DNA of 24,930 nt from Cyanobacteriota bacterium (lineage in GTDB: Bacteria; Cyanobacteriota; Cyanobacteriia; Cyanobacteriales; Nostocaceae), in assembly GCA_046045965.1 (NCBI GenBank), contig JBJOKS010000045.1, forward strand, positions 1 through 24,930, read 5' to 3'. The notes below the pieces were generated by a model. That model ran no database searches. It had not been told where the DNA came from and saw only the letters and a program-made list of their open reading frames with translations. The translations under genes and the position numbers were made by a program. The stretch's first letter is position 1; each line of letters begins with the position of its first letter. Shown piece after piece: positions 686 through 18,818 of this stretch.

Positions 686-1828
686 TCAAACATTTGAATG
701 AACATCTTGAAGCGCCCGGCGTGCTAATTTAACATAAGTTTTAACTGTGGTGTATGGTATTTCTAAATCTTGGGCTATGATTTGTAATGATTCTCCCATT
801 TCTCTTCTTGCTAAAATTGTCGCCCAGGTTGTGGCTATTTTTTCCGTGCGATCGCCTCCTGTGCGTTTCCTTTGTGCTGTGAATATTTCTGTTAGTTGTT
901 CTATGCGTTCTGGTAATAAATTAGTTGTAATTTCTGTAGATATATTTGATGTTGGTTCTATCCATTCTAAGCTAGTTTGCCCTAGTCCAAAGGTGGTTTT
1001 ATGTCCCGTGCCACAATAGGGAGCAAGTTGTAATAAAGCATAAAATAACTGAGTAAATTCGATATTAGCTAAGGCGGTTTTTGCTAACCCTAGAGAAATT
1101 GCCCCTGTAAAACCTGTGACTGAACCCCGTTTACCTGCGGCGACTTTGACAGATTCTAAACTGTGTTTATGAATGATAACGTTTTCATCTATCCATTCTA
1201 AAAAAGCATCTTGTTCTACTGGCATTCCTGAAAAATCATTCCAACGTCTGAGGTAACTATGAAAAAGATTTATGGGAACTGGAAGCGGAAAATGATGTCC
1301 TTTACGGCGAAAACTGGTAGGTGAAATAAAACTCAGATTAATGTTATGATGTTTTTGGGTGGATGATGCTAAAATTTGATTGTAAGTAGTTGGTGGGTTA
1401 ATAATATTTATTTGTTTGATTTGTAATTCGGCATCTCTTAAATTTATGGTTGATGGTAGTTGGGTTAACCATTGATTTAAAAACTCAACTACTGGCTGAG
1501 AAAAAACGTTAACATACCAATGATAGGTATTATTTGCTTGTAATTGCAGTTGTTTACCTGTGGGAACTAATTGACCTTCTAAAGCTGAAATATTAAAGGG
1601 TTTTTCTGATTCACCATCATGTAAATATGCTGAAAGTGTGGGGTTAATTTGGCGTACTTGATCCAAAAACCAAGCATGAAGTCCAATGGTATATTGTGAA
1701 TATAAAGATACGGAAGTAACTGGTTCTAAGTCAAATACTAAACCAATTAATTCGGTATTTTCTGACCATTCCAAAGGTGTGTTTTTTACTGGGTTTTTTC
1801 GTCTGTTAGATACTGCTGCTCTTGGCAT
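686..1828 (-). CDS. cas6: CRISPR-associated endoribonuclease Cas6 with C-terminal HTH extension
   Basis: GLHAWFLD, KPFNIS, FISPTSFR, GFTG and Gly-rich loop GTGHKTTFGLG; ~95 extra residues ending in GESLQIIAQDLEIPYTTVKTYVKLARRAL; adjacent to the array. Confidence 0.93.
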   Translation of the reverse strand: MPRAAVSNRRKNPVKNTPLEWSENTELIGLVFDLEPVTSVSLYSQYTIGLHAWFLDQVRQINPTLSAYLHDGESEKPFNISALEGQLVPTGKQLQLQANNTYHWYVNVFSQPVVEFLNQWLTQLPSTINLRDAELQIKQINIINPPTTYNQILASSTQKHHNINLSFISPTSFRRKGHHFPLPVPINLFHSYLRRWNDFSGMPVEQDAFLEWIDENVIIHKHSLESVKVAAGKRGSVTGFTGAISLGLAKTALANIEFTQLFYALLQLAPYCGTGHKTTFGLGQTSLEWIEPTSNISTEITTNLLPERIEQLTEIFTAQRKRTGGDRTEKIATTWATILARREMGESLQIIAQDLEIPYTTVKTYVKLARRALQDVHSNV

Positions 1829-1865
1829 TTTAGCTATATTCTGTGATGATTATTGATTCTACTCT

Positions 1866-1902
1866 CTTTTAGTCCCCTTGTGGGGATGTATTATGATTGG
1901 GT
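1866..1902 (-). repeat. degenerate terminal CRISPR repeat
   Basis: Minus strand ...CCAATCATAATACATCCCCACAAGGGGACTAAAAG vs consensus GTTTCCAATTACCTAATCCCCGCAAGGGGACTGAAAC; hairpin TCCCC/GGGGA retained. Confidence 0.75.
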
Positions 1903-1922
1903 TTGTGTTGGCGATCGCTCTT

Positions 1923-4905
1923 GTTTTAGTCCCCTTGCGGGGATTAGGTAATTGGAAACCTTCCTAGCCTTGTCGCATCAAACGGAAGTTTCAAGTTTCA
2001 GTCCCCTTGCGGGGATTAGGTAATTGGAAACTGGGACAGCGGGGACAGTGGAATTTCCACTTTCTAAATGTTTCAGTCCCCTTGCGGGGATTAGGTAATT
2101 GGAAACATTCCTCCTATTTCGTTCATCCTTTCCTCGTATTCTCGTTTCAGTCCCCTTGCGGGGATTAGGTAATTGGAAACGTTCCTGGGAATGCCCTGAT
2201 TTTTCTCTAAGTGTTTTTAGGTTTCAGTCCCCTTGCGGGGATTAGGTAATTGGAAACCTCACTGATAGACAGAGAAGCTACTATGAGGTCTCAGGTTTCA
2301 GTCCCCTTGCGGGGATTAGGTAATTGGAAACTATTAAGAATGTGATTGGTAGTAGACCTACTATGGAACTGTTTCAGTCCCCTTGCGGGGATTAGGTAAT
2401 TGGAAACTCCAAGTCTTGCGAGTACCGTTAGGCAGAAGGCTAAAAGTTTCAGTCCCCTTGCGGGGATTAGGTAATTGGAAACCCCTTTTTTGATTTCTCC
2501 CTTCTCTTTTCTTCTGTAGTTTCAGTCCCCTTGCGGGGATTAGGTAATTGGAAACTAGCAGCATTAAACAGTCTTGTGTTAAATAGTTTTGTTTGTTTCA
2601 GTCCCCTTGCGGGGATTAGGTAATTGGAAACGATCTAATTTGTTCCTCGGTGTATTGCCCCTCAAAAGTTTCAGTCCCCTTGCGGGGATTAGGTAATTGG
2701 AAACTTACCCTATCACCTAAAGACCTTCTAATCATCCAAAAAGGGTTTCAGTCCCCTTGCGGGGATTAGGTAATTGGAAACAAAGGTTGCCACTGCCTTT
2801 GCATGGTTCGCCTACAAGTTTCAGTCCCCTTGCGGGGATTAGGTAATTGGAAACGTCGTTGGACCAGTTCCATTAGCTAATGTCACAGTAGTTTCAGTCC
2901 CCTTGCGGGGATTAGGTAATTGGAAACATTCATAGCACCAATGGTACATTTCCAGCAACTCGTGTTTCAGTCCCCTTGCGGGGATTAGGTAATTGGAAAC
3001 AACTGAATCCCAAATATAATAAGCGAAGAGAAAAACGTTTCAGTCCCCTTGCGGGGATTAGGTAATTGGAAACTTTGCAACTTTGGATGGACAGCAAGTA
3101 GAAGTTCCCGATGGGTTTCAGTCCCCTTGCGGGGATTAGGTAATTGGAAACGTGAATCACCTTCTCAAAAGCAAGCTGCGCGATCGGTTTCAGTCCCCTT
3201 GCGGGGATTAGGTAATTGGAAACAAAATATCACCCTTTGTAAAGTTGACTTTTAATTAGGTTTCAGTCCCCTTGCGGGGATTAGGTAATTGGAAACGATA
3301 ACTAATTTCCTTACTAATCAATAATCTTCTGTTTCAGTCCCCTTGCGGGGATTAGGTAATTGGAAACGAGACAAAAGGAACTTTTTTTTGCAATCCATAA
3401 AAGTTTCAGTCCCCTTGCGGGGATTAGGTAATTGGAAACATATTCAGCCTTGCCTTCAGTATATGGGTGCTTGCGGTTTCAGTCCCCTTGCGGGGATTAG
3501 GTAATTGGAAACATAGCTTGCTGGCTACGAATTCCACAAAAATTCATTGTTTCAGTCCCCTTGCGGGGATTAGGTAATTGGAAACCGCCTAACTGACCTC
3601 TAAGCTCTTCGGCAGAAACTTGTTTCAGTCCCCTTGCGGGGATTAGGTAATTGGAAACTCTGGGGTCAATTTGTAAGTTAAGGAGAAGGCTGAATGTTAG
3701 GTTTCAGTCCCCTTGCGGGGATTAGGTAATTGGAAACTCCAAATCCAGGCAGAACAGGGAAGCAGTCAGCAGCGTTTCAGTCCCCTTGCGGGGATTAGGT
3801 AATTGGAAACAAATCGGGGTTCTGTTGCGCCAATTTTCGCACATCAGGTTTCAGTCCCCTTGCGGGGATTAGGTAATTGGAAACCTGATAAATTTGAAGC
3901 TGCTTTTAATAAGTGATGTGGTTTCAGTCCCCTTGCGGGGATTAGGTAATTGGAAACTTATAAGCTCATTCCCGGCAAGTTTACTTAATACTTGTAAGTT
4001 TCAGTCCCCTTGCGGGGATTAGGTAATTGGAAACGTTCCTGCTGGTTTGACTTTGCAGGATTTAGATCGCGTTTCAGTCCCCTTGCGGGGATTAGGTAAT
4101 TGGAAACGATTTTTTTAGCGTCCTCTACAGTAATAGGGTATAGTTTCAGTCCCCTTGCGGGGATTAGGTAATTGGAAACGGAAGAGACAAAAGGAACTTT
4201 TTGCGATCCATAAAAGTTTCAGTCCCCTTGCGGGGATTAGGTAATTGGAAACTTTATCTCTTTTTCTTTAATTTCTCCTGCTTTTGCGTTTCAGTCCCCT
4301 TGCGGGGATTAGGTAATTGGAAACACTTCCTGGGCATAGCTCCCCTTATGCTCCTAGCGCGTTTCAGTCCCCTTGCGGGGATTAGGTAATTGGAAACCTA
4401 CGAATCCCCAAATTTATTGCAAAATCCATATAAGTTTCAGTCCCCTTGCGGGGATTAGGTAATTGGAAACAATTAGCAGGGTTACAGCACCCCGTCGAGC
4501 TCGTTAGTTTCAGTCCCCTTGCGGGGATTAGGTAATTGGAAACGGCATCATGGGACAGTGGGACAGTGGAAAAATTTTGTTTCAGTCCCCTTGCGGGGAT
4601 TAGGTAATTGGAAACCATCGAAACCTCCCAGACTTCCCAACCTTTGCCACGTTTCAGTCCCCTTGCGGGGATTAGGTAATTGGAAACTATCTGTGGAAAT
4701 TTTGCGAATTAAGCCCGGTGAACTGTTTCAGTCCCCTTGCGGGGATTAGGTAATTGGAAACATTTTGCATGGCTTGAATTAATGTTTGACCAATGTGTTT
4801 CAGTCCCCTTGCGGGGATTAGGTAATTGGAAACAATAACCAGGGCTTTTCCCAAGGGAAGTTTTTCATGTTTCAGTCCCCTTGCGGGGATTAGGTAATTG
4901 GAAAC
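1923..4905 (-). CRISPR. CRISPR array, 41 repeats / 40 spacers
   Basis: 37-nt repeat GTTTCCAATTACCTAATCCCCGCAAGGGGACTGAAAC (minus), spacers 34-42 nt; only the 1923 copy carries a substitution. Orientation from the 3' ACTGAAAC handle, the degenerate end at left and the leader at right. Confidence 0.99.
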
Positions 4906-5100
4906 CCCGCCATCTGAAACACAGTCTAGGAGCAGACTGTAGGGGGGATTTTGGCAGACCTCTCAAAAAACCTCATTTCAGGATTCGGGTCAACTGCCAA
5001 CTGAAACTAACAAAACGCTGAAAGTATTTAATTGTCAAGGTTCTGGCGATTTGGCGAATCTCCAGGGTTTTTGACCCCGCTCTAGGTTTGCCAAATTTAT
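4906..5100 (-). promoter_or_regulatory. CRISPR leader
   Basis: Non-coding, abuts the non-degenerate array end; contains related motifs ATTTTGGCAGACCT, ATTTGGCGAATCT and inverted AGGTTTGCCAAAT, typical of cyanobacterial leaders. Confidence 0.8.
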
Positions 5101-5561
5101 CTTTATATAAGAGTAAAATTTAACCAGTAACTTGTCAAGATTTACTGTATTACAAATATTTAAGTGTTAGATTGACCAATTGAGTCAATTATATCTGATA
5201 TAGCCCTATTTCCTTGACAATATCGGCTGTAACTTTCTGTCTTAAATCATAGGGTAAGAGAATTTCTACCTTCGGTCGCCATGCTCGTAAACGCATAGTT
5301 ACATTGTGATCACCATGTCGGTACTGAAGACTGTAGTAAGCATCCTTTGGTGAACGATTTGCCATAACCTTTAATATAATAATTCTGTTTTTTGTTCTGA
5401 ATTAATTACAGAGTTTTTAATCAAGCCTTTCGCTTTTGAGTAGTCAATTAATTTAAAAATTTCATGTCGAAAGGTATCCTGAATGTAGTAGTCATGATAA
5501 TCTAGTTTAAGTGGTAGTAACATCTACATCTATTGAGAGTGAAGGGTATCAAACAGTGGCA

Positions 5562-6431
5562 ATGGAAGTAAAAATTCAAACTCTCACTCCAATCTGGACA
5601 GGCGGTATTGAGGCCGGAAAGTGCGATCGCATTCACGAAACCGGACTGCTTGGTAGTCTGCGTTGGTGGATGGAGGTTCTGGTACGCGGGATGGGGGGTG
5701 TGGTCTGTGATCCTACGGCTGAAAAATCACAAGATCGCAGCAGCCTAGATACTGAAAAATTTCATGCCAAGAAGTATCGTGAATTGCAAAATGAAGTTGA
5801 GCGACGTAAATACTTACGCGATGCGGGACTTTGCGATGTCTCGCAAATTTTTGGCGCGACTGGATGGAAACGTCAGTTTCGGCTGGAAGTCGAAGAAAAA
5901 AATACATCAACTATTCAAATTGAGGATAAATATGCAAAAAGTCGTTCCTTAACGGCAATAAAAGGTAAATTCACTATCAAAATTCAGGGCTTAAACCCAA
6001 CTTTTGATCCACAAATTATTGGTGGTTTAATTCAGTTTATTGCTGATTATTCAACATTAGGAGCGCGTCCTCGAATGGGTTTTGGTGTGATTAAGATTGA
6101 GGGTGATCGCATCCCTATGCAGCCACTTTATAATTGGCTCATTGGTACATCTGGATATAAAAAATATGAAAATTTACCTTCATTAAATAATATTTTAATG
6201 GCAAAAATACAGCCTAAAAATTTAAGTTTTGATGACAAAGGCATAAAGCACGATCTGAGACAACTGTTGAGGACAAATGAAGACAAGCCAGAGGTTAAAA
6301 GCAGTAAACCCATTCTAAAAAAAGATAAAAAGAAGAATCAGTTAGCAGAAGAGAAAAATTCAGTTCCACGAAATCAAAAAGATGCTCAAGTATTTTTACG
6401 TAGCTTATTAGGATTATCAGAGGATATGTAA
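5562..6431 (+). CDS. cmr1: type III RAMP protein Cmr1 (Cas7 group)
   Basis: MEVKIQTLTPIWTGG, ETGLLGSLRWW, SQIFGATG, Gly loop LGARPRMGFG; start moved from GTG 5511 to ATG 5562. Confidence 0.85.
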   Translation: MEVKIQTLTPIWTGGIEAGKCDRIHETGLLGSLRWWMEVLVRGMGGVVCDPTAEKSQDRSSLDTEKFHAKKYRELQNEVERRKYLRDAGLCDVSQIFGATGWKRQFRLEVEEKNTSTIQIEDKYAKSRSLTAIKGKFTIKIQGLNPTFDPQIIGGLIQFIADYSTLGARPRMGFGVIKIEGDRIPMQPLYNWLIGTSGYKKYENLPSLNNILMAKIQPKNLSFDDKGIKHDLRQLLRTNEDKPEVKSSKPILKKDKKKNQLAEEKNSVPRNQKDAQVFLRSLLGLSEDM

Positions 6432-7493
6432 ATGCAATATGAATATTCAGCTACTCAAGACTTTTGGCTGCAAGAAGCTATGTTTGCTAAAGATAAAAAA
6501 AATTATTTACCACAATGGCGAAAGCATTATGAAACAAGCGATCGCAGTCTAGTTGATCAGTTTGATTTTATTCCTAATTCTTCTGATGCTCTCAATAATT
6601 TACCAGCACTCAGTTTCATACTGCGTGTACCGTTCAAACTAAAAAAACCCTATTTGAGTAAAGACGATCGCTCTTTCCATTTACTTGATAATCCAGTACG
6701 GAAAGACAAGGTATTTAAAACTCCTATGGTTTCCTCTACAAGCTGGAAAGGAGCTTTAAGAGCAGCATTATGGCAGTTAGGACATAAAGAAGAAAATGAG
6801 CAAATTATTCGGCTATTTGGTAATGAGCGTGAGCAGGAAGATCATAAAAAACTGAAATCAGGACGGCTCTATTTTTATCCAACTTTCTTTGATAAGATTG
6901 ACAAACAGAAACAGCTAGAAGTAATTAATCCCCATGATCGCAAAAAAGGAACTTCTGCGCGGGGTCCCATTTATTTAGAATGTGTTCCCAAAAATTCTAC
7001 AGGTGAACTTGTTATTTTATATGTCCCTTTTGGGACGGTAGAAAAAAGCCAAGTTATTGAAGATTTGGAACTGGTTGTACAGGGAGTAAAAGAGATGCTC
7101 ACGGTTTATGGTTTTGGAGCAAAGACTAGTAGTGGTTTTGGAATTGTGGAGGATCAACTTGACAGTCAGGGAGAGTTAGCAATTCGGGGTGATATACCAG
7201 AGTTAAAGAAAAAATTAGAATTTCTCAATGATGATGGGACTTTAAAACAAGAGTTTGTCAACAACGATGGAAGTTTTAGAACTGAGTCACAATATAAAAA
7301 ATCCCTTCAAAAACAAAATATTTCACACAACCCGAAACTTTATAAGGAAGCTAAACAATGGTATGAGGAAAATAAACAGAAAATTGGGTCTAGCTCAGAT
7401 TTTATGACAGAAGTTCGTTTCAATAAATTGAGTGAGTTAGGCGATCGCGCCAAGGAAATAGCAGTGCATTTATGTAATGGAGTTCAAGTATGA
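6432..7493 (+). CDS. cmr6: RAMP superfamily protein, Cmr6-like (Cas7 group)
   Basis: SSTSWKGALRAA, RLFG, INPH, GFGAKTSSGFG; position between cmr1 and csx11 matches III-C gene order. Confidence 0.75.
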   Translation: MQYEYSATQDFWLQEAMFAKDKKNYLPQWRKHYETSDRSLVDQFDFIPNSSDALNNLPALSFILRVPFKLKKPYLSKDDRSFHLLDNPVRKDKVFKTPMVSSTSWKGALRAALWQLGHKEENEQIIRLFGNEREQEDHKKLKSGRLYFYPTFFDKIDKQKQLEVINPHDRKKGTSARGPIYLECVPKNSTGELVILYVPFGTVEKSQVIEDLELVVQGVKEMLTVYGFGAKTSSGFGIVEDQLDSQGELAIRGDIPELKKKLEFLNDDGTLKQEFVNNDGSFRTESQYKKSLQKQNISHNPKLYKEAKQWYEENKQKIGSSSDFMTEVRFNKLSELGDRAKEIAVHLCNGVQV

Positions 7494-9613
7494 CTAATAC
7501 TTTCTGGCGACCATCAGATGAACAAAGACGAACAATTTTATTGATGGAAGCTCTTGGATTAATTCATGACTTAGGCAAAATGAGCGATCGCCTTTTGCAA
7601 AAACAAGACCCTTCATTAAACGTGGAATATGGATACAACTTGTTATCTGACCCACGCAATATTGATATTTATTATAATTTCCAAAATATAACTTGTGATC
7701 CCAGTGCAGAATTTGTTACACAAATCTTAGATACAGCTAACAATCAACCTTGTGCATTTGGTGAAATAACTGGTATAAATGACCCTCTTAAAGAAATTGA
7801 ATTTACATGGGATAGTGAACAGTATAATTTTGCTGAATTAATGCCAATTCTAACCAAACCTAAATTGTCGGTAGATCAAAATGCTAACTGGAATGGGGTT
7901 TTGGGTAAATCAATGAAGCCCGGACTTCTCATTGCTTATTTACATGGCATTGCTCACATTGATAAAGAAGGTGATCCAGAAAAGCATAAACAACCCTATA
8001 GTAGTGTATTTCGTGCTACGCCATTTGGTCATGAGGAGCAAGTAGGTACACAGGGAGTTCAAGAGCTAACAAAAACTCTTAATAAATTACCTCTAAACGA
8101 TATTACAAAGATTGCTACTTCTCAAAGATCAGAGTGGCTTGAACAAATGAAGCTATTGATGCAAAGAGGTTTAGCAGATAATCGAAGACCTCATAATGAA
8201 ATATCTCTTTGGGATTGGGGTTATTCAGTAGCTACATTTGCTAAAGCAGCAACTAATTATATCTTTAAAAGTGGTTGGCCATCAAATATCAGGAAATTAC
8301 CTTTTTGTACACTAAGAATCAATTTGAATATTCTTGAATGCTATACACACAATGATAAGATTAGTGATTTGTTAGGAATTAAGCAAGTTATTGATGATGC
8401 TTTCAAAAAAGTAAAAACACTTCTTGAAGAAAATTATGCTTTAGGAAATCAACTTTATCGTGATGAAACAGGTTCTTATTATCTACTACCTAATATTTTT
8501 GATAATAACGAACAGATAGAGTTAAAACAAGAAATTCAATCTCTATTTCCACCAGATTTGAAACCAAAAATATATTTCAGTAATTCATTTACTGCTGATG
8601 CTCTACACCATTTTAAATCAGGAAGTGATAATTCAAATACAGACAGCAAAAATGCTGCAAAAGGAGATGTAAATAAGCTAGTTGCTGAACCAAGACTAGA
8701 AGCGCGAAAAGAAAAGAAAACTACTAATAATAATTTTTATCTTTTTGAGACAGAGTGGAAAGATAATCGCCCTGAAAACTCAGAAACTTGCACAGTTTGT
8801 GGAGTACGGCCTGTTGGTTATCCACTTCAAGGTTCATGTCCTGAAGTAGAGATAACATTAAGTCAGTGGGCAAAACAGAAGAAAGCTCAAGATCGTAAGA
8901 TTTGCCGTGTTTGTTTAGACAGAAGAGGGCGACGATCTGAGCAATGGCTTAAAAATATTGGGCAGGAACATCAACGAAATACAATCTGGACAGACGAAGT
9001 AGCTGATAATAATGGTCGTTTAGCCCTATTTGTTGGAAAACTGGGTTTAGAAGGTTGGCTTGATGGTACATTACTTTCTACTATTCAAGTGACTGATAAT
9101 ATAACTAAAAATCCCTCTCCTGCTCGGTTGTATCGTATTGCTGAAACAGCCCGTGCTTTTTGGCAAAAAGTGACAGATGAATTAATGCCCAACACTGTTG
9201 GTCTGCGTTCATTTCGTTTAGAGTTATCTCCAGATGTTGATGATTTCCCAGATTTAGGAGATTATCAAGCATACGATTTAGATATTGATGGTGTAGTTTT
9301 AAGTGTGGTTTGGGATAAACCCAATAAAAGATTTTTAATAACAGATAACTTGAATTACTGTTCGACTCAATTAGGTATTACTGAGGCTGATATCATTGAA
9401 AAATTGCAAGGAAAAACCTTTCAGCTTTCAGAGCCATCTAGCTTTTTGCAGTCTAGTCGCCCAAAAACAAAAGTTAATGTTCAAACTGTTAAGCAAATTA
9501 ATGGCTACTATCCTTGCATTTCTCTACTATCTGAACCTACTGTTAGCCTAATCCTAGTTCCGGGGAATAAAGCCTTAGAACTAGGACTTACGCACTGTAC
9601 AAATTCCCTATGA
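7490..9613 (+). pseudogene. csx11: Csx11/Cas10-like large subunit (type III-C), 3'-truncated by a MITE-like element
   Basis: N-terminal HD motif IHDLGK, ADNRRPHNEISLWD, CTVC...CRVC Zn finger, KNPSPARLYRI; the last 9 codons (GLTHCTNSL) come from the element starting at ~9581; no cmr4/cmr5/cmr3 follow. Confidence 0.8.
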
Positions 9614-12852: not shown

Positions 12853-13290
12853 ATGAGTCAGCCACCCAGAAACCCAGAAACACCTGAACAACTTTCTACC
12901 AATGACTTAGCAGCAGATAGGACAGAACTAGCTAAATACCGCAGTCGGGCAGCAGCAGACCGCACATTAATGGCGTGGATACGCACCTGTCTTTCGTTGA
13001 TTGGTTTTGGTTTTGGTATTCCCACCATTGTCAGAGCAATTGAAAATACTCGTCTGAGTCATCATCTCAACTCAGTCAGATTTTCGGTAATTGTGGGACT
13101 GTCTTTTATTGTTACGGGAATGTTGGGAATGGTTTTAGGGTTGAGAGAACACGGTCGGTTACTTAAACAAATTCAAAATAATCGCTATACCTACGAAACC
13201 TCTCACAGTGCGGAAATTATCGGAGTGGCTTTACTCGTAATTGGCTTAGTTAGTTTTATTGGTGTGCTAATTAGGGCAATGAATTTTTAA
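12853..13290 (+). CDS. DUF202/YidH-family inner membrane protein
   Basis: AADRTLMAWIRTCLSLIGFGF motif, three TM segments. Confidence 0.85.
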   Translation: MSQPPRNPETPEQLSTNDLAADRTELAKYRSRAAADRTLMAWIRTCLSLIGFGFGIPTIVRAIENTRLSHHLNSVRFSVIVGLSFIVTGMLGMVLGLREHGRLLKQIQNNRYTYETSHSAEIIGVALLVIGLVSFIGVLIRAMNF

Positions 13291-13291
13291 A
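13240..13291 (+). repeat. direct repeat copy 1 (DUF202 3' end)
   Basis: 46/52 identical to 14843-14894. Confidence 0.9.
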
Positions 13292-13294
13292 GAT

Positions 13295-13699
13295 TTAAGG
13301 TGCAATTAGCTGTAAGTTAGGAAAATAGGTTCTATATCGCTTTGCATCTCTAGTTAGTAAGGGAATTTGTCGGATGACGGCATGAGCGCCAATATAAAAA
13401 TCTGGTAGAGGGGAACGGCGATCGCCTTTACTCTGCCGATATTGCTGAAATGCTTTACCTGCAAGAAAAGCAGCTTCCCAAGGTAAGGGTTCGCGCTGAA
13501 AGAAGTTTGGGGGGATGACGCTATCAAGTTCGTCTAGTTGGACAAAACCAATAGAGACTTCTGCATAGATGATGGGGTTGATGAGGAGATTTCCTCTACT
13601 TTCACATTCTATGAGGTGCAGGGATGACCATTCAAACCAATTTGGGTCTTCGGTGATGATATCGAGAATAATATTGCTATCAACTAAAACATCAGTCAT
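13295..13699 (-). CDS. vapC: VapC-family PIN domain toxin
   Basis: VLVDSNIILD, IYAEVS, PLPDFYIGAHA, LLTRD; overlaps the upstream AbrB-type gene. Confidence 0.9.
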   Translation of the reverse strand: MTDVLVDSNIILDIITEDPNWFEWSSLHLIECESRGNLLINPIIYAEVSIGFVQLDELDSVIPPNFFQREPLPWEAAFLAGKAFQQYRQSKGDRRSPLPDFYIGAHAVIRQIPLLTRDAKRYRTYFPNLQLIAP

Positions 13700-13922
13700 A
13701 AGTGGAGCGAGTGATTTCCATAATTTCGTCAGTGCTGAGATGGGTAGTTGCTTTTCCTCGCATAAGATTGATTAAAGTTTCCCCTCTGGTGGGACTATTT
13801 TTTTTCTGAAGTTGTAATATATTCCCTATAATTTTTAACTCAACCTCAGTACCCGGTAAAAATCCTAGCTCTTCTTGAATATCCAGTGGGATTGTAATGC
13901 TTCCATCTTGGGTTATTTGCAT
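13692..13922 (-). CDS. AbrB/MazE/SpoVT-family antitoxin
   Basis: MQITQDGSITIPLDIQEELGFLPGTEVEL; AGGAG RBS upstream of ATG 13922. Confidence 0.85.
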   Translation of the reverse strand: MQITQDGSITIPLDIQEELGFLPGTEVELKIIGNILQLQKKNSPTRGETLINLMRGKATTHLSTDEIMEITRSTYD

Positions 13923-13963
13923 TTTTATTACTCCTGATTTAATCCTGTAATTCACTTTCCTGA

Positions 13964-14128
13964 TTATACTAAACTAATCTTTTTGGGAGTATAAGACACA
14001 AATTGTCTCTTGCTTTTCTTTTCTTGTGCTTTTAAATCTTGATAAATTGCCTTTAAATCGTAGTTAAATTGTCGAGAATGTGCTTCCCTAGTCTGACGAA
14101 TTTCTTCCACAATTGGATCTTTCCACAT
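13964..14128 (-). CDS. 54-aa conserved-looking small protein (not in the ORF track)
   Basis: MWKDPIVEEIRQTREAHSRQFNYDLKAIYQDLKAQEKKSKRQFVSYTPKKISLV; resembles small DPIVEEI..FNYDL proteins often found beside PIN genes; purine-rich RBS. Confidence 0.7.
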   Translation of the reverse strand: MWKDPIVEEIRQTREAHSRQFNYDLKAIYQDLKAQEKKSKRQFVSYTPKKISLV

Positions 14129-14152: not shown

Positions 14153-14419
14153 TCAGGAGTACAAATGATTACATTTTAATACTGTAATTCCTTCTAACGT
14201 TAATTCCCAGCGATCGCGTGGTGAATCTTCTTCTACATAACGGTTGACTAATCCCCGATGGGCAAGATTTTTTAAAACTTCCATCATGTCAGGTTCTCTC
14301 GGAACATCTTGACGGGAAAGTGCATTCGCTAATTCATACCAACTCCATTGACCTTTTCCTTTCTCAACTAATTTTAGTAAAACAAATTCTAGCTGAGTTA
14401 ATTGAGTCGTGTTTTTCAT
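14153..14419 (-). CDS. winged-helix small protein, putative immunity/antitoxin
   Basis: LTQLEFVLLKLV..WSWYELANALS..MEVLKNLAHRGLV..WELTLEG wHTH pattern; ATGA overlap with the upstream toxin-like gene. Confidence 0.65.
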   Translation of the reverse strand: MKNTTQLTQLEFVLLKLVEKGKGQWSWYELANALSRQDVPREPDMMEVLKNLAHRGLVNRYVEEDSPRDRWELTLEGITVLKCNHLYS

Positions 14420-14829
14420 ATCATATCCTCCACACTAGGATGAAATAAAACTCCAAAACCTTCTTTTAAACCATAATCTTCTAGAGTAGCTGTGTGAGCA
14501 TTATTCCATAATTCATAGGCTTCATCTGGATCACTTGGCTGTCCGATGACATAACCTAATTTTTTATATCTTAAATACTCGCGTAACTCATGAGTATAAA
14601 AACGCAAATCTACTGATTCAGCTTTCGATGTACCTTGAGCAATACCTCTTAATCTCTCTACCATTTTAAGCTCTGCATCACCAACTGGGTTGAACCGACG
14701 AATATGAGTTTCAACAATATCAACTCCTTTAGCAGTAATTTTAACATTTTGATAGGATAGTTGGAGGATAATTCCACCCGCTTGAGATGGATCAAAATTT
14801 CTGCCACTAAATAGACCTTTTTGCCGCAT
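14416..14829 (-). CDS. stand-alone pyocin S3/carocin D-like (non-HNH) DNase toxin domain
   Basis: SGRNFDPSQAGG, RFYTHELRE..RY..LG and WNNAHTATLEDY motifs, recalled as the C-terminal toxic domain of pyocin S3-type bacteriocins and polymorphic toxins. Confidence 0.7.
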   Translation of the reverse strand: MRQKGLFSGRNFDPSQAGGIILQLSYQNVKITAKGVDIVETHIRRFNPVGDAELKMVERLRGIAQGTSKAESVDLRFYTHELREYLRYKKLGYVIGQPSDPDEAYELWNNAHTATLEDYGLKEGFGVLFHPSVEDMI

Positions 14830-14842
14830 ATTTTAGATCATG

Positions 14843-14894
14843 ATTGGCTTAGTTAGTTTTCTTGGTGTAGTAATTCGGGCAATAAATTTATAAA
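14843..14894 (+). repeat. direct repeat copy 2 (orphan DUF202 3' end)
   Basis: Encodes IGLVSFLGVVIRAINL* vs IGLVSFIGVLIRAMNF* in copy 1. Confidence 0.9.
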
Positions 14895-17398: not shown

Positions 17399-17615
17399 TA
17401 GGGCTTGCTGAATAAACCCAAAAGCCTGATAAATCAAAGGTTGGAGGCTCATAAAAAAGACAGTAGGTGCTTTTGTTATAGCCTCTTGAGTCTGAAAAAC
17501 CTTGCACTTTTATGGGCAACCAGAGATGAAAAAATGTTTTTAATTCTCCTCCTGACTCCTGACTTCTGACTCCTGACTCCTAGCCCTAACAACAAGACTT
17601 TTTCAGCAAACCCTA
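17399..17615. mobile_element. MITE with GGGCTTGCTGAA/TTCAGCAAACCC ends and internal heptamer STRR
   Basis: TAGGGCTTGCTGAATAA ... TTTTCAGCAAACCCTA; (CTCCTGA)x4 with one variant at 17549-17581. Confidence 0.7.
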
Positions 17616-17819
17616 AATATCGTCTTCACTGAGGTTAGCCACTTTTAGAAAATGCCGTAACAGTCCAGGTTTTAGTGATTGATTTCCATGAATAGGAACA
17701 GAAATTCTGGCTGGATTATCGGATTTACCGTAGATATGATGACTACCATTAATGCGGAGAAGTTGCCATCCGTGAGACTCTAATACTTTAGCAAAATTTT
17801 TCCCTGAAATTGATTTCAT
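17613..17819 (-). CDS. hicA: HicA-family toxin
   Basis: LESHGWQLLRINGSHHIY..ISVPIHGNQSLKPGLL. Confidence 0.92.
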   Translation of the reverse strand: MKSISGKNFAKVLESHGWQLLRINGSHHIYGKSDNPARISVPIHGNQSLKPGLLRHFLKVANLSEDDI

Positions 17820-18016
17820 ACGGCAATTTCTAATATTTGAGCAGATTCATCAAGCTCTAATGAATCAACATCAACAAGTAGGCAACCTTCAACGGCTTCA
17901 TATATATTTTGTAGTAATTCTTCAAAAGTGTCGCCCTGGGTGGCACAACCTGGGATAGCAGGAACTTCTGCCCAGTAACCTGCTTCTTCTTTGTGAATAA
18001 TGACTTTGATTTTCAT
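17816..18016 (-). CDS. hicB: HicB-family antitoxin (short form)
   Basis: YWAEVPAIPGCATQGDTFEELLQNIYEAVEGCL; ATGA overlap with hicA. Confidence 0.92.
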   Translation of the reverse strand: MKIKVIIHKEEAGYWAEVPAIPGCATQGDTFEELLQNIYEAVEGCLLVDVDSLELDESAQILEIAV

Positions 18017-18227
18017 GGGTTGAAGTTCAAGTTTTCCAGTAGGGGATGATTAAAAACAATTATATCTTAATAATAGCCTCTGGTTTGTTGGTGAGACCTA
18101 ATTATAAAGCTTCGCTATAAAATTTTATTATAAAAATAAAATTATTCGTGTGAAGTTGCTGTTAATAAATCTCGATAAGGGTAGGTGGATTTTACTTTCT
18201 ATTCTATTTGATCTTTAATACTCATGA

Positions 18228-18818
18228 TTAATACTTTCTGATTGAATTGTTAATTGTCTGTTGTGCAAGTTGAATCCCAGCAAAATCAAGCCTAGCATAA
18301 CGATTGGCTGTACTCCAATCATACTCAGTTACATTCAGATCCCAACCGTTTGGCATAGATGTTTTAAGACCAAATCCTCCACCAGCAATACTTCTATCAA
18401 GAATATTTTTTTCATCTTTACTAATGAAAACTATCTCAACAAGGTGACTGAGCATACTAGCAATTTGTTCATTGCTGGCACCCTTGTTTAACATATTAAA
18501 AGTTATCGACTTCACCAGCGATGTAGGTACTATATGTTCACCGTGAGTTGAACCTTTACTGTCCCGAAGGTAAAGATTATCAGGTTTCCCTTCTACAATC
18601 AACCAAGCTGCTTCAGAAAATTTGCAAAATTGTCTCGCTTCGCGTAAATAGCAGACATTTTTACCTTCTATTTCTGTAAAGTATGCAAGTTCATCAAATA
18701 TATTTCTGCAACGATATTCCCAACCATGACAGAACTTTCCTGGTGCAGTGAAGACTGAAATATCATAAAGAATACGTATAATTTTAGCTGTAGCAAGTGC
18801 AAAATTTTGATTTGACAT
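18228..18818 (-). CDS. hypothetical protein with possible His-Me finger (HNH-like) motif
   Basis: 196-aa ORF; HGEHIVP...ISKDEKNILD...MPNGW...RYARLDFAGI. Confidence 0.7.
   Translation of the reverse strand: MSNQNFALATAKIIRILYDISVFTAPGKFCHGWEYRCRNIFDELAYFTEIEGKNVCYLREARQFCKFSEAAWLIVEGKPDNLYLRDSKGSTHGEHIVPTSLVKSITFNMLNKGASNEQIASMLSHLVEIVFISKDEKNILDRSIAGGGFGLKTSMPNGWDLNVTEYDWSTANRYARLDFAGIQLAQQTINNSIRKY

Follow-up and report, generated by a model that had tools for sequence, protein, structure and literature searches.

Two overlapping genes, ORF1 and ORF2, in a 24,930-nt stretch of DNA from a cyanobacterium of the family Nostocaceae (the window) appear to form a toxin-first, type II toxin-antitoxin (TA)-like module derived from the tip of a polymorphic toxin. 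We put the probability of this reading at about 0.6. Its basis is homology, the stand-alone anatomy of the toxin, the linkage of the two genes, purifying selection and one-sided gene loss.

The gene pair and its surroundings

The pair and the features next to it are as follows.

14416..14829, minus strand: ORF1, 137 aa, bare toxin domain of the carocin S3/D type, predicted to be a DNase
14153..14419, minus strand: ORF2, 88 aa, putative cognate immunity protein/antitoxin of winged-helix fold
14427..14431, minus strand: GGAGG, Shine-Dalgarno-like site for ORF2, within the 3′ end of ORF1
13964..14128, minus strand: 54-aa ORF, neighbour outside the conserved pair, no family match above cut-off
13692..13925, minus strand: AbrB/MazE-like antitoxin (PF04014, E = 4.7e-5, 23.7 bits, slightly below the cut-off of 24.7 bits; TIGR01439, E = 0.003)
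13295..13699, minus strand: VapC/PIN toxin (PF01850, E = 1.4e-8)
13235..13291, plus strand: 57-nt direct repeat, copy 1, at the 3′ end of a DUF202 gene; left border of a 1.6-kb block
14838..14894, plus strand: 57-nt direct repeat, copy 2; right border; its end lies 9 nt upstream of the start codon of ORF1

As originally predicted, the 137 residues of ORF1 include SGRNFDPSQAGG, FYTHELRE and WNNAHTATLEDY, the reading frame runs stop-Asn-Met with a TAA two codons ahead of the ATG, and the gene overlaps ORF2 by ATGA, both genes lying on the minus strand. ORF1 contains no N-terminal trafficking, signal, receptor-binding or translocation segment; it has its own Met and starts where the domain starts, and there is no upstream stub for recombination. 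Both genes are present in one copy each in the genome that carries this locus (G000, 92% complete). No operator-like repeat stood out on inspection of the sequence upstream of the pair, and a promoter scan returned 4 sites versus 6.1 expected, with no promoter standing out. In metatranscriptome X1 an identical 866-nt contig spans 13793-14658; since parts of the sulfatase and DUF202 genes are represented too, this coverage may be DNA background.

The 54-aa, AbrB/MazE-like and PIN ORFs come after ORF2 on the same strand. The two 57-nt repeats are 86% identical and enclose a 1.6-kb block of TA-type genes, an arrangement which suggests that the block was inserted. The pair had been described as part of an operon-like run with a genuine AbrB/VapC pair. 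The same-strand AbrB-like and PIN genes are indeed present, but the linkage is not conserved: among 78 loci with flanks of 1.5-6 kb, AbrB/VapC accompanied the pair only in the window and in one other locus (L090), in differing order, and we rejected a conserved operon. L090 has the same genes as the window block in another order, and in L003 and L004 a NACHT gene follows; from these differences the block site would be a hotspot for the swapping of small modules. The 54-aa ORF is probably a stray gene of antitoxin type. Its paralog on G000 contig C52 (near 2239), 39% identical, directly follows a 157-aa ORF that is PIN-like by eye, so the 54-aa ORF may represent an unlisted antitoxin family.

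Two other regions of the window were noted. At 17613-18818 (minus strand) a HicA/HicB pair lies beside a low-GC 196-aa ORF that has no Pfam, NCBIfam or PADLOC match and a weak PHROG match (E = 0.03). Positions 686-9613 hold a cas6-like gene, a CRISPR array of ∼3 kb and RAMP/Cas10-like genes, as judged from the ORF list.

The killing domain of ORF1

ORF1 is 45% identical to carocin S3K (P0558, S5G4D1) over 121 aa (E = 4e-29), and the alignment has the motifs FYTHE.RE and WNN.HTATLEDY in common. Carocin S3K was reached by a search from a colicin tip, which led to Pectobacterium bacteriocins, one of them named Carocin S3K. An 827-aa bacteriocin of Pectobacterium carotovorum carries the killing domain as well; the look-up of sequence records returned none named carocin D. 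Carocin S3K is reported to digest DNA with Mg2+ and to be blocked by its immunity protein, carocin S3I (PMC7461348). Since in the same report S3I by itself also digested DNA, and the passages on the S3K assay include no catalytic mutant (PMC7461348), the DNase assignment is of moderate strength. That report describes S3K as ∼80% similar to carocin D from Gly507 to the end (PMC7461348), and the killing domain of carocin D is called the ‘CarD DNase domain’ and stated to be a DNase (PMC7461348, PMC5821083). We assign ORF1 as a carocin S3/D-type killing domain and predict, with moderate confidence, that it is a DNase.

This assignment differs from the original label of the domain as pyocin S3-like. 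In order to locate pyocin S3A, we used the pyoS3A-I primers published in the supplement of PMC5493400. One primer was found in metagenome contigs and four more matched the same locus exactly, so that pyocin S3A in L060 was identified by exact matches to five published PA14 primers; scans of viral contigs with the primers gave no match. The pyocin S3A gene encodes 767 aa and is followed by a 153-aa immunity protein of the DUF6392 family (pyocin S3I). We rejected ORF1 as a pyocin S3-type DNase: the best BLASTP match has E = 20, and the hhalign probability is 0.2%. ORF2 was likewise rejected as an S3I-type immunity protein, with no DUF6392 match and a score of −1.2 bits for S3I against the ORF2 profile. 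All that pyocin S3 and ORF1 have in common is that both types of tip occur on Pyocin_S-domain carriers; pyocin S3 has no sequence similarity to ORF1 and an immunity family different from ORF2. Because both its killing domain and its DUF6392 immunity protein differ, the pyocin S3 label fails; the comparison with carocin S3K agrees with the other half of the original label, carocin D-type.

No match to ORF1 was found in Pfam, NCBIfam, PADLOC (2023) or PHROGs, and the carocin S3/D killing domain is without a Pfam model. Among 101 ORF1 homologs, H42, D74, H80, W108, H112 and L116 are invariant, and R10, R45, E81, R83, E84 and R87 are nearly so. The structure model of ORF1 has a pLDDT of 95.4. No solved relative was found by sequence, and none by Foldseek against the PDB or BFVD at E ≤ 0.001; the best VIA-align result among 48,161 chains had a Z score of 4.6 and an rmsd of 2.6 over 64 residues, which is not proof of a new fold. 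The ESM Atlas gave clusters without names and one 37% Pyocin_S cluster at 0.89.

The original prediction that the domain normally ends a long exported protein was borne out. Longer homologs made up 39 of 286 candidates, with 450 representatives at E ≤ 0.001, and in these the domain is mostly C-terminal. In 31 scanned homologs the domains ahead of the toxin tip were PAAR, RHS, MuF, LysM, T7SS-signal, DUF4781 and Pyocin_S, and the domain also arms colicins, klebicins, pyocins and Rhs and T7SS toxins. ORF1-type tips on polymorphic toxins are 41-62% identical to ORF1. The toxin domain was found in 36 plasmid records, and those that are annotated are mostly colicin- or pyocin-type bacteriocins. Since long homologs and plasmid bacteriocins bear the domain, mostly C-terminally, we regard it as a polymorphic-toxin tip, one that is common in soil and water bacteria. 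Some very long proteins (L043:582-3344, plus strand; P0166, P0176, P0177 and P0202) have the toxin domain in an internal rather than a C-terminal position, and some of these show annexin-like matches.

Carrier-less forms in cyanobacteria

ORF1 homologs accounted for 178 of 182 candidates of similar length. This, together with dN/dS of ∼0.15 for both genes, indicates that the ORFs are beyond chance. In a length-filtered search, 115 among at least 119 near-length homologs had 128-141 aa, and among the matches listed all near-length homologs bearing an organism name were cyanobacterial. In the species-genome collection, 40 of 52 loci were of the short form. All 37 short-form loci with a match from residue 1 have an in-frame stop ahead of it, at a distance of 0-31 codons (at most 8 in 35 of them), so the predicted lack of an export or translocation domain in ORF1 extends to these loci.

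A quick tree was built from 124 of 224 extracted toxin domains. The 30 short-form sequences in it fall on one side of a branch with an SH-aLRT of 91 (not starred), and nearest to the stand-alone branch are a MuF toxin and a Cystobacter sequence. A Nostoc contig in which the domain lies inside a 920-codon frame (L043) was placed outside the stand-alone clade. The closest named relatives of ORF1 are on Dolichospermum contigs (94%), with Trichormus variabilis as a cluster mate, and the module is kept across Microcoleus, Nostocales and Microcystis relatives. Distribution of the toxin gene is patchy; it was found in 9 of 401 genomes of the phylum and in 17 of 301 genomes of the family of the window. 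Judged from the sequences, the stand-alone toxins of cyanobacteria make up a single clade, on which purifying selection acts.

The toxin domain also has a second, distant relative with no carrier (L116-L126, e.g. L116:1465-2420, plus strand), of ∼124 aa and with an hhalign probability of 98.7%. It occurs in at least 11 of the 301 family genomes and is absent from G000. This relative always precedes a gene of 192-195 aa that is not a winged helix and has no Pfam, PADLOC or PHROG match, and it also adjoins a conserved membrane-type gene of 125-128 aa. Separately, a 281-aa metagenomic protein (P0255) combines, in a single frame, the greater part of the toxin domain with a winged-helix relative; its middle appears frameshifted, so it may be an artefact.

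The winged-helix partner ORF2

The prediction that ORF2 is winged-helix-like agrees with its AlphaFold model (pLDDT 83.7), which Foldseek matched to MepR/PadR (E = 1.5e-4, TM 0.75). In PADLOC 2023 it gave only a weak CARF3 match (E = 0.005). In each of the 40 short-form loci ORF2 is the gene immediately after ORF1; three of them are partial or frameshifted.

A profile built from 14 cyanobacterial copies of ORF2 also picked up genes that follow the toxin elsewhere: those of Anaerolinea, Cystobacter and Dyella, of six actinobacterial loci and of an enterobacterial plasmid. Their scores were 19-75 bits, and reversed controls reached no more than 3.3. In Dyella, Micromonospora, Anaerolinea and the enterobacterial plasmid, the winged-helix relatives come after long toxins. 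Because relatives of ORF2 follow toxins, several of them long, in other phyla, ORF2 is best regarded as the inherited immunity protein of the toxin family. The same observation leaves the originally proposed new coupling of toxin and partner unsupported. What stands of that proposal is that ORF2 behaves as an antidote, as seen in its linkage to ORF1, the one-sided loss described below and the modelled complex. Compared with colicin, pyocin and klebicin immunity proteins, used as stand-ins for those of the CaroS3I/CarDI type, ORF2 gave an hhalign probability of 1.7% (E = 0.03) and hmmsearch scores at the level of reversed controls; by these comparisons, homology of ORF2 to the carocin/colicin-type immunity family is not demonstrated.

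Modelling of the pair, one of the checks proposed with the original prediction, gave a complex score of 0.86; the best of three controls scored 0.20. The mark used for this score is reached by 116 of 157 solved complexes and by 2 of 215 mismatched pairs. Between runs, at least 97% of the contacts were shared, and the partner had a pLDDT of 85 or more. In the model, residues 26-46 and 62-69 of ORF2 contact residues 8-11, 46-53, 96-109 and 122-129 of ORF1, and the interface takes in the conserved R10, W108 and N109 of ORF1 and helix 2 and the wing of ORF2. The model supports direct binding of ORF1 by ORF2. Autoregulation of the TA type is doubtful because no operator-like repeat or promoter was seen and the modelled DNA-binding face of ORF2 sits on the toxin. 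DNA upstream of the pair varies by lineage.

About 16 Microcoleus-type loci have a C-terminal extension on ORF2, and in the one full-tail copy scanned (L005) it matches a HicB-like antitoxin domain (PF15919, E = 2e-12). Tails differ by lineage, being HicB-like in L005:6408-6893 and related Microcoleus loci and helical, with no family assigned, in others (L006:6411-6800, L031:6411-6818).

Selection, gene loss and translation signals

Median dN/dS was 0.137 for ORF1 and 0.158 for ORF2. The ORF1 value is pairwise, from 286 usable pairs of 630 among 36 sequences, and the pairs are not independent. Across 36 intact cyanobacterial copies, 19 of 20 checked ORF1 positions are invariant or nearly so, and the start Met is present in 34. 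The putative catalytic residues are invariant at dS above 1. Together with the low dN/dS, this invariance argues that ORF1 is maintained as a protein and is not decaying debris.

In 301 genomes of the family of the window, ORF2 was found in 30 and confirmed in 29 (L098 was dropped). The toxin is intact in 13 of these 29 genomes, broken in 6 and missing from 10 (one at a contig edge), and in the 17 family genomes with strong matches to the toxin, ORF2 always lies beside it. Drawn from the 78 loci, 58 distinct loci comprise 36 with both genes intact, 16 with the toxin broken or absent and ORF2 intact, 5 with both damaged and 1 with the reverse; these counts combine searches led by the toxin with searches led by ORF2, and related loci have lesions in common. 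The reverse case (L030, the same as L096) is a 79% complete MAG in which the toxin is intact and ORF2 is cut at residue 69. Among the lesions are four distinct premature stops, frameshifts and no fewer than four distinct deletions; deletions that drop the toxin and spare ORF2 are in L085, L090, L079/L086 and L071. For harm to the toxin's own host when ORF2 is limiting, the imbalance of 16 to 1 would be indirect evidence. One-sided loss is also expected from the retention of orphan immunity genes.

Ribosome-binding-like motifs were counted in 33 of the 36 intact pairs. Such a motif precedes ORF2 in 32 of the 33 and ORF1 in none, and the copy in the window likewise has no Shine-Dalgarno-like site before ORF1. 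The ORF2 motif is also present in 10 of 10 loci in which the two genes are 80-150 nt apart.

Neighbourhoods and possible carriers

The neighbour survey covered 84 of 104 extracted proteins, and its TA neighbours are a listing without background comparison. Flanks differ by lineage: Microcoleus has ispG next to a GUN4 gene of kinase or caspase type, Nostocales have dusB and a DnaK-like gene, and elsewhere there are the TA genes PemK/MazE, PIN, DUF433/DUF5615, nucleotidyltransferase and YefM. Some neighbours are of conflict type (TIR-TPR, NACHT, caspase- or kinase-GUN4, Pepco), and most are housekeeping genes (ispG, dusB, DnaK-like) or ordinary TA genes. The gene-neighbourhood check put forward originally upheld the pairing of ORF1 with ORF2 and not the AbrB/VapC linkage. 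Among the scanned proteins there was neither a carrier gene adjoining the pair nor a conserved secretion or lysis gene.

In G000, all 154 long homologs match this locus. The carrier regions of these homologs gave no match in the genome at E < 1e-8 (one subtilase matched at 3e-7), and no Rhs or PAAR match was found in the 92% complete assembly; four TPS-domain proteins are encoded on other contigs. With regard to phages, there were no relatives among 33 IMG/VR pattern matches and none in INPHARED.

Mechanism and alternative explanations

We propose that the killing domain separated a single time from a polymorphic-toxin carrier, taking its own immunity gene with it, and that cyanobacteria have kept the pair as a toxin-first, type II TA-like module. 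As in type II TA systems, two small genes are coupled and an export signal is absent; as in polymorphic toxins, a cognate immunity gene lies immediately downstream in every short-form locus. Having no domain for export or uptake, the toxin would remain in the cytoplasm of its producer. ORF2 would be translated more strongly than ORF1, judging from the ribosome-binding sites, and in the model it binds the rim of the conserved His/Glu/Arg/Trp site via its helix-turn-helix and wing face. If ORF2 ran short, the toxin would be expected to attack the DNA of its own cell as a metal-dependent nuclease, as the reports on carocin S3K and carocin D suggest.

An orphan tip/immunity cassette would explain some of the same observations. 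In that case the toxin would be a silent reserve or a passenger, and selection would act mainly on ORF2, which would protect against incoming toxins of the same family from neighbours. That toxins of soil and water bacteria commonly end in this domain, that ORF2 persists without ORF1 in 10 of 29 genomes, that ORF1 has no ribosome-binding motif and that the Nostoc contig L043 has the domain in a 920-codon frame would all fit. We nevertheless consider this unlikely, since ORF1 has a dN/dS of 0.137 with its putative catalytic residues invariant, has its own Met at the domain boundary and no recombination stub, and sits in a 92% complete genome with no Rhs or PAAR match; L043, moreover, lies outside the stand-alone clade. 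Release of a minimal interbacterial toxin that lacks a fused carrier, through lysis, through vesicles or with a carrier or adaptor encoded elsewhere, would make ORF2 a self-immunity protein. All characterised relatives are exported weapons, and Microcoleus and Nostocales dwell in mats and colonies. However, signal, receptor-binding and translocation segments are absent from the toxin, the scanned neighbours include no conserved secretion or lysis gene, and the flanks vary by lineage; we believe this explanation to be very improbable.

Infection could also be what frees the nuclease, so that host and phage DNA are both destroyed and one cell of the filament is sacrificed. Many TA modules are anti-phage, the distribution of the pair is patchy (9 of 401 phylum and 17 of 301 family genomes), and some neighbours are of conflict type. 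On the other hand, PADLOC and PHROGs gave no match, IMG/VR and INPHARED contained no relative, most neighbours are housekeeping or ordinary TA genes, and a sensor domain is absent. No finding speaks specifically for phage defence; such abortive infection is quite unlikely, and would be a special case of the TA-like reading and not another chemistry. Also rather improbable is a bolder form, in which cyanobacteria, on one occasion, domesticated a DNase tip of bacteriocin type as a suicide nuclease triggered by phage or stress, with ORF2 doubling as the sensor. A phage protein, or DNA competing for the helix-turn-helix face, would then release ORF2, and the HicB-type domain would be a gain of the Microcoleus ORF2. 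If true, this would be a new TA/abortive-infection family of filamentous cyanobacteria with a nuclease that has no characterised structure.

Relation to known systems

Several elements of the TA-like module that we favour are already known, namely the toxin domain, the pairing of toxin and immunity genes and the role of orphan Rhs tips as TA modules inside the cell. Carocin S3K and carocin D have an immunity gene of ∼90 aa with an ATGA overlap, as described for them and as in ORF1/ORF2; carocins, however, are exported bacteriocins of 830-880 aa, whereas ORF1 is a bare domain. Polymorphic toxins with Rhs, PAAR, MuF, T7SS, LysM or S-type pyocin carriers have the same domain as their C-terminal tip. 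Unlike these, the cyanobacterial pair has no carrier, no adjacent full-length toxin or cassette array, and a start codon of its own throughout the clade. A published precedent is that orphan Rhs toxin-immunity pairs of Salmonella are described as acting internally as type II TA systems (PMC7043789). As far as that description goes, what is shared is a tip and its cognate immunity protein expressed internally as a TA module, which for our pair is a proposed role. The cyanobacterial pair differs in being detached from a carrier, in belonging to another toxin family and in persisting across several orders. Because the orphan Rhs pairs are a precedent for the principle, the surprise is limited. 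A literature search, with journals outside subscription as its scope, returned no description of the cyanobacterial pair.

Single-domain gene homologs of toxin tips were tested by Nachmias et al. (bioRxiv 10.1101/2021.10.19.465003), and one of their toxins, PT5, is described there from Actinobacteria, Proteobacteria and the cyanobacterial Microcoleaceae. This range, compared by description only, fits the ORF1 family, and PT5 could be the ORF1 domain. In the passages on PT5, cells became rounded and chromosomes were not degraded, and enterobacterial bacteriocins are not listed for it. Should the two domains be the same, toxicity has already been shown and the DNase reading is weaker.

If our reading is true, the pair shows clearly how the tip of an exported toxin, along with its immunity gene, has turned into a self-contained intracellular module. 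The pair of 137 and 88 residues also gives a handle on the carocin S3/D killing domain, for which there is no Pfam model. With a pair of this size the chemistry, the catalytic residues and the mode of winged-helix immunity become directly testable.

The carocin-type tip was also seen on a P. aeruginosa S-type pyocin that lacks annotation in its plasmid record (L055:2309-4701, plus strand). This pyocin falls in a 90% cluster with pyocin S2 records and has an immunity gene of 85 aa.
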